DNA of 39,985 bases from an uncultured Methanosarcinales archaeon. GTDB lineage: Archaea; Nanobdellota; Nanobdellia; Woesearchaeales; GW2011-AR9. The notes under the pieces were generated by a model. It had not been told where the DNA came from. It saw nothing but the letters and a program-made list of their open reading frames with translations, and ran no database searches. The translations under genes were made by a program, and so were the position numbers. Shown piece after piece: positions 21,527 through 36,262 of the stretch. The stretch covers positions 1 to 39,985 of the forward strand of contig CAZQLW010000005.1 of NCBI GenBank assembly GCA_964594395.1, in the 5' to 3' direction. Position 1 is the first letter of the stretch; each line of letters starts with the position of its first letter.

Positions 21527-21635
21527 TGGCCCCGCGGGGATTTGAACCCCGGACCTCACGATTTCTTTCCTAAACAGGATATCAGTCGTGCGCTCTATTA
21601 CCCAAAATAAATTTTCCAGGCTAAGCCACGGGGCC
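21527..21635 (-). tRNA. tRNA-Ile(GAU) with two introns (D-loop and 37/38)
   Basis: Acceptor GGCCCCG/CGGGGCC-A, D stem GCTT/GAGC, anticodon stem CACGA/TCGTG with GAT at 21581-21583, T arm CGGGG-TTCAAAT-CCCCG; inserts at ~21599-21614 and 21563-21579. Confidence 0.9.
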
Positions 21636-28604: not shown

Positions 28605-28738
28605 TTCTTATTTATTATATTAATTAATTTTATTTATCTGTTTATTTGTAAAGCCACTAGCCACTGGACAGGTGCGGGAAAGACTTATAAACAAGCAGTT
28701 TTCTAAAATAATCATGAGAAAAGAGAGGTTCTATTAAA

Positions 28739-29557
28739 TTGGCTAAGCGAGTTGAATCACCATCATCAATTAATACATTTAAACAGTGTAAACGAAAATA
28801 TTATTATAGTTATATAGAAAAACTTCCTACCGTTCCTAACATTCATCAAGTTCGGGGAAATATTGCTCATTCTACGTTAGAACATTTCTATGATATTGAT
28901 GTAAGTAAATTCAATTTAGAAAATTATGAAATTGAATACAAAAAAGTTGTTCAGAAACTTTTATTGTTTCAATGGAACAAGTACCAACCTAAACTTGATG
29001 GACTTGGTCTTAATCAAGATAAACTTAAATTTTATTTTGAAGAAACAATGTTGATGGTCATGAATTGGTGCAATCATTTCTTGAAAGACATTAAATCTAT
29101 GGTTGAAAAAGAAAATATTTCTATCCCTGAAGCGTTCATGAAACTTACTCCGATCAGAGAACAGAAATATGCTTCTGAGAAATATTCTATTCGCGGTTTT
29201 ATTGACGCTATTCACCATTGTGGTGATGAAATACATATTCTTGATTATAAAACTAATTCTCGGTTTGATATGAAAGATGCAATCAAACTACAGTTAGCAA
29301 TTTATTCGTTGCTGTACCAAGAAAAGAGAGGAGTTTTACCTCATAAAGTAGGGATTTTCTTTTTACGACATAAATCAAAGTATCTTAATGTTGAACCAGA
29401 AATGATTGAATTAGCAAAAAGAGAAATTAATGCTATTCATGCTCATACTTCTAGCACCGAAAAGATTGAAGATTATGAAAGAACTATTACTCCGTTATGT
29501 AAATGGTCCACTGGCAAATGTGATTACTACGATACATGTAAACCTCATGATGATTAA
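28739..29557 (+). CDS. Stand-alone PD-(D/E)xK nuclease, RecB/Cas4-like, probable Fe-S cluster; TTG start
   Basis: SPSSINTFKQC, GNIAH, RGFIDAI..DYKT, QLAIY, three C-terminal Cys. Confidence 0.85.
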   Translation: MAKRVESPSSINTFKQCKRKYYYSYIEKLPTVPNIHQVRGNIAHSTLEHFYDIDVSKFNLENYEIEYKKVVQKLLLFQWNKYQPKLDGLGLNQDKLKFYFEETMLMVMNWCNHFLKDIKSMVEKENISIPEAFMKLTPIREQKYASEKYSIRGFIDAIHHCGDEIHILDYKTNSRFDMKDAIKLQLAIYSLLYQEKRGVLPHKVGIFFLRHKSKYLNVEPEMIELAKREINAIHAHTSSTEKIEDYERTITPLCKWSTGKCDYYDTCKPHDD

Positions 29558-31203: not shown

Positions 31204-31345
31204 AATATGATCACCTCTTTTTTTGTTAAGGAAGTAGTTTTTGTTTATATATCTTTTCGTTAATTAAATAAACATTATCGGAGAACACTTGATTTTTTAT
31301 AAGTAATCCGTAATATTTTTAAAGTATGCCTGTTAATAAAGTAGG

Positions 31346-32206
31346 ATGATCAAGAATCAAGTTAAAACGGTTATACTTTTAACCTTATTAGCAGTATTAT
31401 TAATTTTTATTGGCAGATTAGTTGGTGGACCAACAGGAATGTTGATTGGTTTAGTTTTTGCTTTAGGGATAAACTTTGTATCGTACTGGTGGTCGGACAA
31501 AATTGTTCTTAAAATTTATCGAGCAAAGGAAGCTGACCAAAATGAATATTCTAATCTTTATACAATGATGAAAGAAATTGTTCATGCAGCAAAATTACCA
31601 ATGCCAAAACTTTACATTATTAATATACCACAAGCTAACGCTTTTGCTACTGGTCGTAATTATAAACATTCAGCAGTAGCAGTTTCTACAGGTATTTTAG
31701 AAGTACTTAACGATAACGAACTGAAAGGAGTTCTTGCCCATGAAGTTAGTCACATAAAAAACAGAGACGTTCTTATCGGAACAGTAGCGGCAACAATTGC
31801 AGCAGTAATTTCTTATGTAGCAATGATGGCTCGATGGGCAGCAATCTTTGGTGGTGTTGGTGGCAGAGACAGAAACGGTGGCGGTTTGTTAGAACTATTA
31901 GTGTTAGCTGTTGTTGCACCAATCATGGCAATGATAATTCAGTTTGCTATTTCTAGAAGTAGAGAATACCTTGCTGATGAAACCGGGGCAAAGTTGGTAA
32001 AAGACCCTTACAGTTTAGCTTCTGCTTTAGAAAAAATTCATAAAAATGTTTCTCATCATCCGTTAAGAAAACAAGGTACAACTGATGCTACTGCCCACAT
32101 GTTTATTTCTAATCCTTTCCGGGGAAAGAATTTGTTGAACTTGTTCTCAACTCATCCACCAATGGAAAAGAGAGTGAAAAAACTTCGAGCAATGAGAAGT
32201 TTCTAA
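31346..32206 (+). CDS. htpX: Zinc metalloprotease HtpX (M48)
   Basis: NAFATG, HEVSH, SRSREYLAD, FSTHPP. Confidence 0.96.
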   Translation: MIKNQVKTVILLTLLAVLLIFIGRLVGGPTGMLIGLVFALGINFVSYWWSDKIVLKIYRAKEADQNEYSNLYTMMKEIVHAAKLPMPKLYIINIPQANAFATGRNYKHSAVAVSTGILEVLNDNELKGVLAHEVSHIKNRDVLIGTVAATIAAVISYVAMMARWAAIFGGVGGRDRNGGGLLELLVLAVVAPIMAMIIQFAISRSREYLADETGAKLVKDPYSLASALEKIHKNVSHHPLRKQGTTDATAHMFISNPFRGKNLLNLFSTHPPMEKRVKKLRAMRSF

Positions 32207-32278
32207 AAAATCAAGAATTTTTCAACTTTATTCACTTTACTCAAAAACTTTTTAAATACGCTTAGTTTCTAGATAATT

Positions 32279-33797: not shown

Positions 33798-34550
33798 TTA
33801 ATTTACTTTTGCTTTACTTTTTTTGTTCATTAATTTGACATTGATCTCTTTAAATGGATCTGTTTGTTTTGTAGAAATTTTTTGTTGATTTTCTAAATGT
33901 AATAACGGGATAAATGTGTACACTTTATCTCGCTTTTTTGCTTCAGGCGGTAATAACTGTGAGAAAGTAATATTTTTCCTTTCTTTTTTATGGGTATAAT
34001 AAGCAATTTTGTGATACAAGTCACGGATAACTTCCATAATGTCCATCGTTCTTTTAGGAAGATTATACTTCACTGGTTTTTGTTTAGCAAGAATTCTTTT
34101 TCTGCTTTGCATTGCGTTTTGTAGTGCGTTAACTAAATCATGGATAGAAACTTTTCTATCTCTTGGTTGAGGTTGTCTTGGAATTAACGTAAACTGATGT
34201 TTCTCTCTTTTCTTTTTATCAGAAACGTAGCCTAACTCAGAGAAATCAAGTAAATCATCCTCCCACTGATTTTCAGTTTGTTGCATTAATTTATCAAGGT
34301 TAGTAATGTCATGATCTAGAAAGTGAGCAGATTTAATTTTTAACAAAAATGCAGCTGCAAGGAGAACTTTTCCAGATATTTTTAAGTCATGTTCTTGCAT
34401 CTCTTTGATTAAATCAATATATCTTTTTGTAAGTAAACTTAAATTAACATCCCAGGGGTCCATTTGTTCAGTTTTAACAAGATCAAATAGAATTGTTCTC
34501 CAGGTAACGTCCTCTTTTTCAATAAGCAAATCTAATATTTGTTCTTGCAT
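33798..34550 (-). CDS. scpA: Segregation and condensation protein A (kleisin)
   Basis: MDPWDVNLSLLT, GKVLLAAAFLLKIKS, winged-helix FIPLLHL. Confidence 0.88.
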   Translation of the reverse strand: MQEQILDLLIEKEDVTWRTILFDLVKTEQMDPWDVNLSLLTKRYIDLIKEMQEHDLKISGKVLLAAAFLLKIKSAHFLDHDITNLDKLMQQTENQWEDDLLDFSELGYVSDKKKREKHQFTLIPRQPQPRDRKVSIHDLVNALQNAMQSRKRILAKQKPVKYNLPKRTMDIMEVIRDLYHKIAYYTHKKERKNITFSQLLPPEAKKRDKVYTFIPLLHLENQQKISTKQTDPFKEINVKLMNKKSKAKVN

Positions 34551-34652
34551 TGTTGTTTATGAGGAAATTATGGGATTTTATAAGGTTTTGGTTTTTATTG
34601 AGCTTGTTTTTTCCAAAAAGTTAATAAATGGAGTAAATAAAACAACGTTTGT

Positions 34653-34669
34653 GCCCCGGTGGCTTAGTG
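34653..34669 (+). pseudogene. Orphan tRNA 5' fragment (positions 1 to ~17)
   Basis: GCCCCGG-TG-GCTT-AGTG fits acceptor strand, U8, D-stem 5' strand and A14G15; 12/17 identical to the start of the downstream tRNA-Thr; promoter-like AAAAGTTAATAAA at 34616-34628. Confidence 0.7.
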
Positions 34670-34719
34670 TAACCACATTTTTACTTTAAATTATATCATC
34701 ATAAATTGTAATCAATAAA

Positions 34720-35340
34720 ATGATTAATTTGAACTTAAAATCCCCTGAACTTGCCGAATTTATTGGTGTTCTTATTGGAGATGGTTTTATTGGTTCTTAT
34801 GGAAGAACTACAAAAATGATTCAGATAACAGGTCATAAAATAAATGACAAAAAATATTATTATCAATATCTTAATCCCTTAATTAATAATATATTTAATA
34901 CGAAAACACACATTTATGAACAAGAAAATGGTCTTAGATTAACAATTTATTCTAAAAAGATTTTTGAAACATTAAGAGATCAACTTGATTTTCCTGTGGG
35001 GAAAAAAGGCCAAATTACAATTCCAAAATCTTTAATCGTAACTAATGAATGTAAACTAAGATTGATAAGAGGATTATTTGATACTGATGGGAGCATACAT
35101 CTGCAAAGAAACAAATATCCTGTAATTGCTATAACCACAACCAGTGAAAAATTAGCTAAACAAGTCCAAGATTTATTAAATGAATTTAATTTTGGCGCTT
35201 ATATCTGTAAAAGTAAAGGCAAGATTAGAGATGCTTTTAGGGTAACAATCTTTGGAAAACAGAAAGTTTTAAAATGGAAAGAGTTAATAGGATCTTCAAA
35301 TCCTTATCATATCAAAAGGATTAATGCCTCTGTAGCATAG
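34720..35340 (+). mobile_element. Two-motif LAGLIDADG homing endonuclease gene overlapping the tRNA-Thr 5' end
   Basis: LAEFIGVLIGDG and LIRGLFDTDG; no intein splicing residues; last 15 nt are tRNA positions 1-15. Confidence 0.88.
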
Positions 35341-35443
35341 TAGCTATTGCGTCAGCCTTGTAAAATCGAACTGAGTGAGATTTGCTCAGAAATCTTTGAT
35401 TTCAGACAGCTGAAGGTCGTGGGTGCAATTCCCACCAGGGGCT
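35326..35443 (+). tRNA. tRNA-Thr(UGU) with 45-nt intron at 37/38
   Basis: Acceptor GCCTCTG/CAGGGGC-T, anticodon stem TCAGC/GCTGA with TGT at 35359-35361, T arm GTGGG-TGCAATT-CCCAC; intron 35363-35407 forms a near-canonical BHB. Confidence 0.88.
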
Positions 35444-35455
35444 CTTTCTTTTAAT

Positions 35456-36262
35456 TTATACTAAAACACTAATCACTCTTGATGATAAACTATACATATT
35501 TTCTAATAAAGAACCGAGAATTGCATTATTATTTTTCTTAAGAAGTTTTTTTCTCTTTTCAAAGATTTCTTCAAAAGCTTTTGTGGCTAGTGATAAATCT
35601 TTTTTTAGATAAGCTGTATTGATTTTGTCAAATAATTCTTTGGTTTCTGTATTACTTTTTTCAAGGAATGTTAAAGAGCCAGATACTTTCTTCAACATTA
35701 AAATTAGGGAACTGTATTCATAAGTCTTATCTTTACCAAAATTAGTTGTAAAAACTAACCTTTGGCAATAATTACCTATTTTTAACACAGATTTTCTTAA
35801 TTCTAATATTTCCTCCTTTTCACCGGTTTTAGAGAACATATATTTTATTGTTGTAAATAATTTGTTAATAATTTTATCAACATCTTCAAATTTTTCTGTT
35901 GATGTATTTTGGATAATAATACTTTTATCAGATTGTTCAGTAATTATCAAACCTATATAACTGTCTATTAGACGATTAATCATGACAAAGGAAAATTTCT
36001 TTTTTGTTGTTAGTTTAATTTTGTTATAGCCTTGCCAGTAAACTGAGGATAAAGCAATTCTTAATGAAGAAGAGTTCATATCAGTAGCGTTGATAGTAAT
36101 AACTTTGTCTTTGAGGATGGTTTCTGGGGTTAAAATTAAATTGTTACCATCTTCATTAACTGAAACTTCATCGCCCGGTTTTAGATGTAAACGATCAACC
36201 CATTTTTTAGGAACATACATAGTTAATCCAGTTCCACCTTGTTTGATTAGTTTTCTGTTCAT
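35456..36262 (-). CDS. AbrB-domain, PhoU-like archaeal regulator
   Basis: RKLIKQGGTGLTMYVPKKWV...LKPGDEV swapped-hairpin domain, YWQGYNKI, helical C-terminus. Confidence 0.8.
   Translation of the reverse strand: MNRKLIKQGGTGLTMYVPKKWVDRLHLKPGDEVSVNEDGNNLILTPETILKDKVITINATDMNSSSLRIALSSVYWQGYNKIKLTTKKKFSFVMINRLIDSYIGLIITEQSDKSIIIQNTSTEKFEDVDKIINKLFTTIKYMFSKTGEKEEILELRKSVLKIGNYCQRLVFTTNFGKDKTYEYSSLILMLKKVSGSLTFLEKSNTETKELFDKINTAYLKKDLSLATKAFEEIFEKRKKLLKKNNNAILGSLLENMYSLSSRVISVLV

Follow-up and report, generated by a model that had tools for sequence, protein, structure and literature searches.

A LAGLIDADG endonuclease gene that ends inside a complete tRNA-Thr(UGU) gene in a Woesearchaeota-type archaeon, and its probable movement as one cassette

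A free-standing LAGLIDADG homing endonuclease gene, neither intron nor intein, probably travels together with a complete tRNA-Thr(UGU) gene, as a single cassette, in the DPANN genome considered here (G000). It lies in the window, the whole stretch of 39,985 nucleotides that was analysed, and has no stop codon of its own; the reading frame runs into the tRNA gene and terminates at tRNA nucleotides U13-A14-G15. Introns and inteins are considered the hiding places that let homing endonuclease genes persist in essential genes. The window locus would represent a third solution, suited to an RNA gene, in which a full spare copy is brought and the resident is overwritten. In the mechanism that we propose, the enzyme would cut the D-loop of a resident tRNA-Thr gene near nt 17–18, and repair off an occupied allele would copy the ORF together with its linked tRNA. 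The first 17–18 nt of the resident gene would remain behind the native promoter as a dead orphan, the remainder of the resident gene would be replaced, and the cell would thereafter be dependent on the tRNA of the cassette. That the enzyme cuts tRNA-Thr DNA, that it does so at this place, and that the linked tRNA allele escapes cutting are predictions drawn from sequence comparison; since the linked tRNA retains the nt 17–18 region, the enzyme would have to discriminate between alleles or need flanking bases.

The locus and its two tRNA types

The features of the locus are as follows.

33798–34550, − strand: scpA, left flank and synteny anchor (Pfam SMC_ScpA, 2.4e-18)
34615–34629, + strand: putative tRNA-type archaeal promoter AAAAAGTTAATAAAT, read from the sequence
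34653–34669, + strand: orphan tRNA 5' piece GCCCCGGTGGCTTAGTG (nt 1–17), an exact 17-mer of the start of family-type tRNA-Thr(UGU)
34685–34695, + strand: TATA-like box TTTAAATTATA of putative function, 25–35 nt 5' of the ATG, conserved in loci L109 and L117
34720–35340, + strand: LAGLIDADG homing endonuclease ORF of 206 aa, stop included in the coordinates (ORF call; Pfam LAGLIDADG_3)
34750–34788, + strand: LAGLIDADG motif 1, LAEFIGVLIGDGF, aa 11–23 of the translation
35059–35094, + strand: LAGLIDADG motif 2, RLIRGLFDTDGS, aa 114–125 of the translation
35326–35340, + strand: ORF/tRNA overlap of 15 nt, the four final sense codons and TAG being tRNA nt 1–15
35326–35443, + strand: complete tRNA-Thr(UGU) of order-typical type (Rfam and ARAGORN)
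35363–35407, + strand: canonical 37/38 tRNA intron of 45 nt (ARAGORN i(38,45)), with a near-perfect bulge-helix-bulge
35456–36262, − strand: right flanking gene with an AbrB/MazE-type N-terminal domain (Pfam MazE_antitoxin, 3e-09)

An earlier, sequence-only reading of this DNA had described the order of promoter, tRNA 5' fragment, LAGLIDADG ORF and tRNA-Thr(UGU), and had equated the A-S-V-A-stop tail of the ORF with tRNA nt 1–15, its TAG being nt 13–15; each feature was found where that reading had placed it, and the ORF and Rfam calls agree on the overlap. The end of the orphan and the start of the tRNA are separated by 656 nt that hold a single ORF, with a non-coding stretch of 50 nt between the orphan and the ATG. 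The promoter box lies approximately 25–35 nt before the orphan, matches the AAAACTTAATAAA box upstream of the tRNA genes of relatives and aligns with its counterparts in four related loci (L109, L117, L110, and L118; alignment A1). It is probably the native promoter of the displaced tRNA-Thr gene. The TATA-like box downstream of the orphan is a candidate promoter of the endonuclease gene's own, which would yield a leaderless mRNA. The ORF and the tRNA may also be co-transcribed, and RNase P processing of the tRNA would remove the stop codon of the mRNA, which the sequence-only reading had proposed as a limiter of expression. RNase P RNA is present in the G000 genome; a look through RNA runs turned up none that contains the locus.

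All genomes compared here are metagenome assemblies. Contigs of four DNA runs from two studies, some of which are possibly the source samples, span the orphan, the ORF and the tRNA as far as nt 28, and also the ORF end, the tRNA and the 3' flank, with 0 differences. An assembly artefact is unlikely.

The product of the ORF, which ends in K R I N A S V A, matches Pfam LAGLIDADG_3 (PF14528) with 68.1 bits against a cut-off of 22.5 (E 8e-19). Two acidic-residue motifs occur in the one chain, LIGDGF (aa 18–23) and FDTDGS (aa 120–125), and both align to intein endonuclease domains of archaeal V-ATPase. The GDG of motif 1 and the FDTDG of motif 2 are retained in all six orthologues (L109, L110, L111, L112, L117, and L118), which are 60–87% identical. 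With both catalytic motifs kept and dN/dS at 0.08–0.20 in 6/6 orthologue pairs, the ORF is evidently under purifying selection.

The linked tRNA matches the Rfam tRNA model at 52.3 bits (cut-off 29; model positions 1–71), and ARAGORN, with introns allowed, identifies tRNA-Thr(tgt) interrupted at position 38 by an intron of 45 nt, the bulge-helix-bulge (BHB) of which scores 11/12 in our own scoring. It is the sole tRNA-Thr(UGU) found in the G000 assembly. According to the sequence-only reading, the element supplies just a recoded 5' end that rebuilds the resident gene. This part of the proposal is not supported: the whole linked tRNA is of another allele type, differing from the family's usual type in acceptor 3' strand, anticodon stem, T-arm and intron, and its 5' end is an ordinary start, the 5' 21-mer being present (at up to 3 mismatches) in 91 of the 121 genomes of the order, a tally that includes G000 and the unpublished G135. 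The cassette therefore carries a complete tRNA. Such a "foreign" tRNA is another allele type and not necessarily that of another family, since the order-typical D-arm also occurs within the family, in tRNA-Thr(CGU) of G000 (contig C6), G006, and G153 and in tRNA-Thr(UGU) of G144, G014, and G020; no endonuclease gene lies directly upstream of these family tRNAs.

The orphan is identical to the linked tRNA at 12 of nt 1–17, exactly the count given earlier, and shuffling the 150 nt upstream of the ORF produced a match of at least 12/17 in 16 of 2000 trials. More telling, complete genes for tRNA-Thr(UGU) begin with exactly this 17-mer in G001, G003, and G013. The body of the family-type tRNA (GGCTATAGCACCTGACTTGTA, at up to 2 mismatches) was found in 21 of 40 other family genomes, with 0 copies in G000. 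Judged by these comparisons, the orphan and the linked tRNA clearly come from two different allele types, and the orphan represents the leftover 5' end of a displaced family-type resident tRNA-Thr(UGU). This agrees with the earlier proposal, which placed the insertion in a tRNA-Thr D-loop, with the displaced resident 5' end persisting upstream.

An allele lacking the element was sought at the syntenic scpA site of G001, a genome of the same genus. As anticipated, the tRNA-Thr(UGU) there begins with the 17 nt of the orphan and is not accompanied by an orthologous endonuclease gene; the best LAGLIDADG match to the window ORF in G001 is only 31% identical. Synteny with G001 extends along the left flank to position 34667, at 88.9% identity, and scpA is 93% identical at the amino acid level. 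On the right, the AbrB/MazE-type gene is 56% identical in amino acid sequence; positions 35444–35671 have no match in G001 by blastn, and identity in the next gene is 74%, compared with 88% on the left, although identity varies along the entire window. The G001 site itself consists of an orphan-like 17-mer, an 83-nt spacer and then a complete tRNA. It is not a clean empty site, and the history of the scpA site is more complex than one insertion.

Intron and integrase readings of the insert

The locus could also be read as a tRNA gene interrupted in its D-loop by a very long non-canonical BHB intron that contains the ORF, with the 17-nt piece as its real 5' exon and the other 5' end as part of the intron. 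Non-canonical introns do occur in archaeal tRNAs and in G000 especially, where the tRNA-Cys on contig C4 has an intron in the D-loop, and G001 has a tRNA intron in the T-loop at 59/60; the finding of only 11 Rfam tRNA matches in G000, a genome that is 93% complete, also points in this direction. The pairing of the two candidate 5' ends with the rest of the tRNA bears on the question from both sides. The downstream copy pairs 7/7 with the acceptor 3' strand CAGGGGC, including one G-U, and putting the orphan in its place creates G6.A67 and U12.U23 mismatches. The earlier argument that the orphan would make a worse tRNA is upheld as far as these mismatches go, but in forced cloverleaf folds the downstream copy (−25.7 kcal/mol) is better than the orphan hybrid (−24.9 kcal/mol) by merely 0.8 kcal/mol, and the argument is not relied on here.

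Twelve in-register splice pairs reached a BHB score of 8/12 at most, the best candidate forming 1/4 central-helix pairs, whereas two control introns scored 11/12 each; the best of all 3484 splice-site combinations (67 × 52) scored 10/12 and was out of register. Cofolding of the orphan region with the ORF end gave no informative structure. Moreover, a complete tRNA (52–74 bits) follows the ORF in every orthologous locus, the orphans vary independently of the 3' acceptor strand (giving G6.A67 in G000 and C4.A69 in L110), and two remnant loci, L113 and L119, have lost the upstream part and retained the tRNA. A BHB intron carrying the ORF was rejected, given that the junctions form no BHB, the joined exons mispair and a better-paired tRNA lies downstream, and we consider this reading very improbable. 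A group I or group II intron was likewise rejected, covariance models detecting no ribozyme core: a Rfam search of 34300–35700 at E≤1 returned the tRNA and a weak snoRNA-like match only, and no intron match was obtained in 35 related loci. The free-standing, non-intronic character that the sequence-only reading assigned to the gene is in keeping with these results.

Integrase-borne islands offer a more familiar way of flanking an insert with a complete and a partial tRNA copy, the insert restoring the gene, and archaeal integrative elements typically leave such a pair; these islands measure 9–23 kb, employ a site-specific recombinase, and have identical repeats that usually comprise the tRNA 3' part (PMC9897764). 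If the orphan and the complete tRNA were attL/attR-like ends of an island of this kind, the endonuclease would be its cargo. The insert, however, has only 656 nt (0.66 kb) between orphan and tRNA, the LAGLIDADG gene is the single ORF of 60 aa or longer on its strand, and no integrase is nearby; what stays behind is the 5' part of the tRNA, which differs in sequence and allele type from the complete copy. An origin by integrase seems barely credible on these grounds.

Related loci, transfer and decay

The sequence-only reading had predicted that the fragment-ORF-tRNA arrangement would recur in other genomes, and it does. In 10/10 loci (alignment A2) the ORF end joins a tRNA-Thr at its nt 1, always in the same frame; these loci are G000, the six orthologues, the remnants L113 and L119, and a distant pseudogene, L047. 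The tRNAs of the eight new loci score 52–74 bits in Rfam, and that of L047 scores 36 bits, in a stretch shared with L008. Seven loci retain the ORF start and upstream DNA, and six of these (G000, L109, L117, L110, L118, and L047) have an orphan directly behind a tRNA promoter; none was found upstream of the ORF in L111. The orphan differs from the linked tRNA in 5/6 orphan loci, two resident types being represented among the orphans, and is identical to it in L047, where the ORF is a pseudogene. In the five loci where the ORF is intact and the orphan differs, nt 7–12 read GTGGCT in the orphan and GTAGCA in the linked tRNA. As the linked tRNAs share descent, this contrast is only a hint of how an occupied allele might be immune.

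Beyond these loci the association with tRNA genes is broader and looser. Among 31 loci of relatives with LAGLIDADG homologues, 14 have a tRNA overlapping the ORF stop or within 30 nt of it (ARAGORN), nine on the same strand and five on the opposite strand, with Rfam confirming 9/14. Related ORFs adjoin tRNAs for Cys, His, Leu, Lys, Gly, Asn, and Gln in either orientation, and L004 and L008 have duplicated tRNA ends on either side of the ORF. In L005, L036, and L123 a related ORF lies beside tRNA-Thr with no detectable orphan, in the latter two without overlap as well, and orphans were not found in L009, L010, L013, L016, and L003 (best 10/20). This variety of neighbors, together with the related ORFs that have neither overlap nor orphan, would suit an enzyme that targets something else and for which tRNA genes, being conserved and highly transcribed, serve as a safe harbour, the duplicated pieces being by-products of imprecise repair. 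The junctions of the tRNA-Thr loci are nonetheless precise. On the left, resident tRNAs of two different types are broken at the same point of the D-loop, which follows nt 17 in G000, L109, and L117 and nt 18 in L110 and L118; on the right, the break is exactly at tRNA nt 1 in 10/10 loci. Such precision fits a defined cut inside the tRNA gene, and we judge the harbour account to be quite improbable.

Movement of the unit is apparent in L109 and L117. Over the ORF and the tRNA these loci are 95–100% identical per 100 nt, and their flanks are 63–91% identical; the endonucleases are 99% identical and the flanking proteins 71–76%. On its left side, the tract of identity starts within the orphan (A1). 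This island indicates that the ORF and tRNA were recently transferred as a unit, and it is a comparative signature of unidirectional transfer with co-conversion. No flanking ORF is common to G000 and L109, L117, L110, L118, or L111. Decay products of the element also exist, in the form of the L047 pseudogene and of L113 and L119.

These observations bear on whether the endonuclease might instead be a fixed resident, immobile or domesticated, with the orphan and the tRNA swap arising through ordinary recombination between tRNA-Thr alleles and not from its cleavage. The copy in G000 differs from its nearest relative, that of L109, by a dS of 0.67 and is hence no fresh arrival and may no longer be mobile; strong purifying selection would equally fit a host function, and both tRNA-Thr allele types coexist in the family. 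A resident of this kind is hard to reconcile, however, with an identity island limited to ORF and tRNA, with the presence of the ORF-tRNA unit in at least four unrelated gene neighbourhoods, with a patchy distribution that excludes the same-genus G001, or with a pseudogene and remnants of the sort expected from the gain and decay cycle of homing genes. We think it unlikely, and retain the mobile cassette as the preferred reading.

Several candidate features of related genomes were set aside. An apparent orphan 3' piece in L028 belongs to a second, intron-bearing tRNA-Gln, and a pair of tRNA-Thr 5' ends 847 nt apart in G131 represents two complete genes with an unrelated ORF between them, irrelevant to the element. 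A CCACTGG.CAA motif upstream of many cassettes is general, occurring beside TATA boxes (10 sites in G000), and is absent from the window's cassette; for these reasons it is not considered part of the element. Nearby pairs of tRNA-Thr 5' ends, 112–215 nt apart, were located in G066, G107, and G080.

Precedents and wider reading

A literature search, which left subscription journals mostly uncovered, found no archaeal case described in which a LAGLIDADG gene is fused to a tRNA and a tRNA 5' piece is displaced. The closest precedents are SegB of phage T4 and fungal mitochondrial endonuclease genes with duplicated host-gene ends. The classic example of the latter is reportedly atp6 of Allomyces, where the element is said to bring a replacement gene end. 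Mitochondrial LAGLIDADG and GIY-YIG genes of fungi resemble the window element in that the host gene is complete on one side of the ORF and partly repeated, as a displaced piece, on the other, but their hosts are protein-coding and the duplicated end is the 3' (C-terminal) one; in the window the displaced piece is the 5' end of a tRNA gene, the tRNA is provided in full and the ORF terminates within it. In Endoconidiophora resinifera, for instance, endonuclease ORFs of cob and atp6 are described as lying between the complete gene and a displaced partial copy of the gene end (PMC6279837). The fungal type of host-gene-end duplication is an analogue of the window element, not a member of the same group by descent.

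SegB is described as a free-standing GIY-YIG homing endonuclease of the T4 tRNA gene cluster, with a recognition site that includes a conserved tRNA motif (T-psi-C), and as driving co-inheritance of itself and neighbouring tRNA genes (PMC2330249). It shares with the window element a tRNA-associated endonuclease gene outside introns, but it is GIY-YIG and phage-borne, whereas the window element is LAGLIDADG and resides in a cellular genome; a duplicated tRNA piece, an ORF-tRNA overlap and the replacement of a single essential tRNA go unmentioned for SegB in that paper's abstract. Intron-encoded LAGLIDADG enzymes of archaea belong to the same protein family and to the same kind of organisms. Of 39 archaeal group I introns, 21 have LAGLIDADG ORFs, several of them in Woesearchaeota, and all 39 reside in rRNA genes and are spliced out (PMC6125680). 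The window element differs from such spliced introns in having neither ribozyme nor BHB, its host gene being kept intact by duplication.

If the proposed mechanism is true, a selfish gene can drive horizontal sweeps of essential tRNA alleles, and small (~205 aa) single-chain LAGLIDADG enzymes are available whose tRNA-gene target is predictable and easily tested. The mechanism would also give a concrete origin to the orphan pieces and odd inserts of tRNA genes in DPANN archaea, which have been a long-standing puzzle tied to the origin of disrupted and split archaeal tRNAs. Since standard finders detect no more than the 11 tRNAs noted above in a nearly complete genome, annotation pipelines will miss most of such biology.

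Tentatively, and with considerable doubt about the reading as a whole, the window element may belong to a DPANN (Woesearchaeota-type) LAGLIDADG family that homes into tRNA genes without splicing, carries a replacement tRNA or tRNA end, drives alleles, leaves scars, and is coupled to RNase P. Were this so, essential tRNA alleles would be replaced horizontally between lineages, with hosts becoming dependent on the copy of the element, and, through the ORF-tRNA overlap, endonuclease output would vary inversely with the maturation of the tRNA by RNase P. The scars would be orphan ends and ORF-less inserts of 60–85 nt flanked by duplicated 5' ends (found in G001 and twice in G159), and might have supplied the material from which the unusual introns and fragmented tRNA genes of these archaea arose. 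The spacers of G001 and G159 have no match to any endonuclease cassette; the sole match outside their own loci is one of 21 nt between the G159 spacer and a second tRNA-Thr locus of G159.

Layout of the locus and origin of its two tRNA copies

The order of fragment, open reading frame (ORF) and tRNA described in the sequence-only reading was confirmed in G000, the genome of the window. The features are in place, and all junctions are spanned by contigs from four DNA runs with 0 differences.

Features of the G000 locus, in order
34615-34629, + strand: tRNA-type promoter box
34653-34669, + strand: orphan 17-mer GCCCCGGTGGCTTAGTG, a displaced tRNA 5' piece downstream of the promoter box
Between orphan and ORF, + strand: AT-rich spacer of 50 nt containing a TATA-like box (34685-34695)
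34720-35340, + strand: ORF of 206 aa (Pfam LAGLIDADG_3, E 8e-19)
35326-35443, + strand: complete tRNA (Rfam 52.3 bits, model positions 1-71)

The ORF carries two LAGLIDADG motifs, each of which can be aligned to the endonuclease domains of archaeal V-ATPase inteins. ARAGORN calls the tRNA as tRNA-Thr(UGU) with a 45-nt intron at 37/38, and its nt 1-15 are the final ORF codons GCC TCT GTA GCA TAG. The orphan is identical to tRNA nt 1-17 at 12/17 positions; when the 150 nt upstream were shuffled 2000 times, 16 shuffles gave a match at least as good. ARAGORN run with introns also reports a 'tRNA-Stop(tta)' whose intron would lie at position 33 (21527-21635, minus strand); it has no Rfam support and is probably a false positive.

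The first 21 nt of the linked tRNA, allowing up to 3 mismatches, occur in 91 of 121 genomes of the order (a tally that takes in G000 and the unpublished G135), where they are the ordinary start of tRNA-Thr; a reversed control pattern gave 2 matches. The usual tRNA-Thr(UGU) of the window's family begins with the exact 17 nt of the orphan, continues GGCTATAGCACCTGACTTGTA, and differs from the linked copy in the anticodon stem, T-arm and acceptor 3' strand. Its body is present as one copy in 21 of 40 other family genomes; neither it nor four further type-specific strings were found in G000, in whose assembly no tRNA-Thr(UGU) other than the linked copy was detected. In the same-genus relative G001, whose ScpA is 93% identical, synteny with the window extends as far as 34667 at 88.9% identity, a family-type tRNA occupies the site, and the closest LAGLIDADG match to the window ORF is only 31% identical. 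The G001 locus is not a clean empty site, as its promoter is followed by an orphan-like 17-mer, a spacer of 83 nt and a complete tRNA. Taken across the order, the family and G001, these allele types indicate that the orphan is the remnant of a resident tRNA-Thr gene and that the complete tRNA, from nt 1 through the 3' end and including the intron, is part of the cassette. The earlier proposal, in which the element brings a recoded 5' end, therefore does not hold; the start is the ordinary one of the order, and the whole tRNA came with the cassette.

The order-type D-arm is also found inside the family: tRNA-Thr(CGU) has it, and so does the tRNA-Thr(UGU) of three genomes (G144, G014 and G020) in which no endonuclease gene lies directly upstream. 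The order-typical tRNA-Thr has the D-loop AGUAGCUA, without the usual GG (window 35326-35443; loci L047, L113, L104 and L125-L131), and the T-loop UGCAAUU, in which position 55 is G, not U; these oddities may reflect co-variation of the G18-psi55 tertiary contact. Elsewhere, identity to G001 ranges from 74% to 88% along the window, and an indel at 31293-32246 separates these two same-genus genomes (0.95 kb in the window vs 2.2 kb in G001).

An ORF-bearing intron, spliced so as to join the 17-mer to the downstream tRNA, was considered and rejected on account of a weak in-register bulge-helix-bulge motif (BHB), the lack of a group I or II match and a mismatched product. BHBs were scored out of 12, on a central helix of 4 bp, two bulges of 3 nt and two outer helices of 4 bp each. 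By this measure the tRNA's own 37/38 intron reaches 11/12, as does the clean BHB of the T-loop (59/60) intron in the G001 tRNA-Thr. No good BHB was found among 12 in-register joins (≤8/12), and the top score among 3484 splice combinations, 10/12, is out of register. Rfam gave no match to group I or II introns at the G000 locus or in 35 related loci, and the non-coding part of the insert is 50 nt only. The joined product would carry G6.A67 and U12.U23, at a small energy cost (-24.9 vs -25.7 kcal/mol).

Recurrence, transfer and decay of the cassette

Genome and metagenome contigs were scanned for recurrence; all genomes are metagenome assemblies.

Loci related to the window ORF
L109, L117: orthologues, 87% identity
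L112: orthologue, 77% identity, partial contig
L110, L118: orthologues, 71-72% identity
L111: orthologue, 60% identity
L113, L119: remnants keeping the final 30-43 codons alone
L047 (= L008): more distant, frameshifted copy at tRNA-Thr in another family

In 10 of 10 aligned loci the ORF enters tRNA-Thr nt 1 directly and in the same frame, ending A-S-V-A-stop in nine and A-S-V-A-Q-R-stop in L111. The linked tRNA scores 52-74 bits in Rfam in eight new loci and 36 bits in L047, scored in the same stretch as L008. Upstream DNA and the ORF start are both retained in seven loci, and in six of these an orphan 5' piece lies directly behind a tRNA promoter; none was found upstream of the ORF in L111, whose ORF (locus 1141-2127) has an N-terminal extension of ~120 aa. 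Family-type orphans (G000, L109, L117) end after nt 17 and those of a third type (L110, L118) after nt 18, junctions which, by D-loop numbering, would be one place, G18|G19. In L047 orphan and linked tRNA are identical.

L109 and L117 are syntenic, with flanks 63-91% identical per 100-nt window and 95-100% identity from just after the orphan to ~20 nt beyond the tRNA. Their endonucleases are 99% identical, vs 71-76% for three flanking proteins, and their orphans differ at nt 6, placing the left edge of the transferred tract within the orphan. No flanking ORFs are common to G000 and any of L109, L117, L110, L118 or L111. The dN/dS of the ORF is 0.08-0.20 in six of six pairs, and decay is seen in pseudogene L047 and the 5'-deleted remnants L113 and L119. 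The identity island, the differing contexts, selection and decay are together the marks expected of a homing gene repeatedly transferred and then lost. The dS of 0.67 between the G000 and L109 copies indicates that the G000 copy itself is not recent.

Proposed mechanism and known systems

Given the established layout, two allele types, precise junctions, transferred unit and selection on the ORF, we propose that the enzyme cleaves unoccupied tRNA-Thr genes within the D-loop. Repair would use the recipient's own tRNA 5' part (in relatives, with the promoter) as left arm and the tRNA 3' end or downstream flank as right arm, copying ORF and tRNA and leaving resident nt 1-17 stranded. The linked tRNA would have to escape cleavage. 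In five loci whose ORF is intact and whose orphan differs from the linked tRNA, nt 7-12 read GTGGCT in orphans and GTAGCA in linked tRNAs; this contrast would fit allele discrimination, but shared descent of the cassettes confounds it. The tRNA promoter, the cassette's TATA box, or both could yield one RNA with ORF and tRNA. An archaeal RNase P RNA is present in G000 (128 bits), so maturation at tRNA nt 1 would strip the ORF's last five codons with the stop; the earlier suggestion that this processing would limit endonuclease expression is a plausible hypothesis.

Among known systems, T4 SegB is a free-standing endonuclease that recognises a tRNA motif and spreads itself with tRNA genes (PMC2330249). 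In fungal mitochondria, LAGLIDADG ORFs occur with a gene on one side and, on the other, a displaced partial copy of that gene's end (PMC6279837), and partial tRNA copies are left behind by integrase-borne islands (PMC9897764). LAGLIDADG genes of archaea are known to reside in rRNA introns, and a survey of archaeal group I introns placed all 39 in rRNA genes (PMC6125680). A full-text literature search turned up no cellular LAGLIDADG gene described as overwriting a tRNA gene with its own complete copy and ending inside it.

Other LAGLIDADG genes and inserts at tRNA genes

LAGLIDADG homologues occur in 23 of 41 genomes (G000 and 40 relatives), and in 14 of 31 loci ARAGORN predicts a tRNA that either overlaps the ORF stop or lies no more than 30 nt from it, on the same strand in nine and the opposite strand in five. 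Rfam confirms nine of these 14 and gave no match at the ARAGORN site in L014, L015, L029, L023 and L030. By eye, L005 (37-nt overlap with a twice-interrupted tRNA-Thr), L008 (a pseudogene) and L028 (an intron-bearing tRNA-Gln starting 13 nt after the stop) also qualify. Chance adjacency is estimated at ~0.2% per site, from 11 predicted tRNAs in 1.12 Mb of G000. L004 is a mirror image: its ORF is antisense, with final codons complementary to the 3' end of the tRNA, and past the ORF start lies a second copy of that 3' end, 29 nt long (27/29 identical).

The three LAGLIDADG genes of G000 all adjoin tRNA genes: Thr (window), Cys (contig C4) and Gln (C30). The third (L002, G000:C30:75-3656) adjoins ~230 nt of GC-rich DNA (locus ~2200-2440) without an Rfam match, which can be read by eye as a tRNA-Gln interrupted by three introns (one after nt 8, one in the anticodon loop and one in the T-loop); next to it is a possible orphan 5' piece, and the ORF is flanked by a perfect 16-nt direct repeat, TTTATAAAATTTTTGG. 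The motif (G)CCACTA(C/G)CCACTGG(A/T)CAAGT(A/G)CGG is conserved and stands directly upstream of a TATA-like box before several genes, many LAGLIDADG genes among them, with 10 sites in G000 (e.g. C4, C23, C30, C37, C38, C59) and occurrences in 10 of 31 LAGLIDADG loci of relatives; it is absent in front of the window's LAGLIDADG gene and resembles an operator or promoter element.

In the 93%-complete G000, standard tools detect just 11 tRNAs, eight above the Rfam cut-off, and many of its tRNA genes have non-canonical or multiple introns. These include an 18-nt D-loop intron in tRNA-Cys (L003, G000:C4:37702-37794) and a long T-loop (59/60) intron in the tRNA at the end of C77 (L108), like that of G001 tRNA-Thr (L075). 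ORF-less inserts of 60-85 nt lie between a duplicated tRNA-Thr 5' piece and a complete tRNA in L075 (G001:C1, ~28650-28860, minus strand), L062 (G159:C11) and L122 (G159:C8), and may be miniature relatives or scars of endonuclease cassettes. They start with a hairpin motif, CAAATG..CATTTGATA, whose same 21 nt appear at two tRNA-Thr genes of G159 (UGU and CGU); the motif also opens the T-loop intron of G001.
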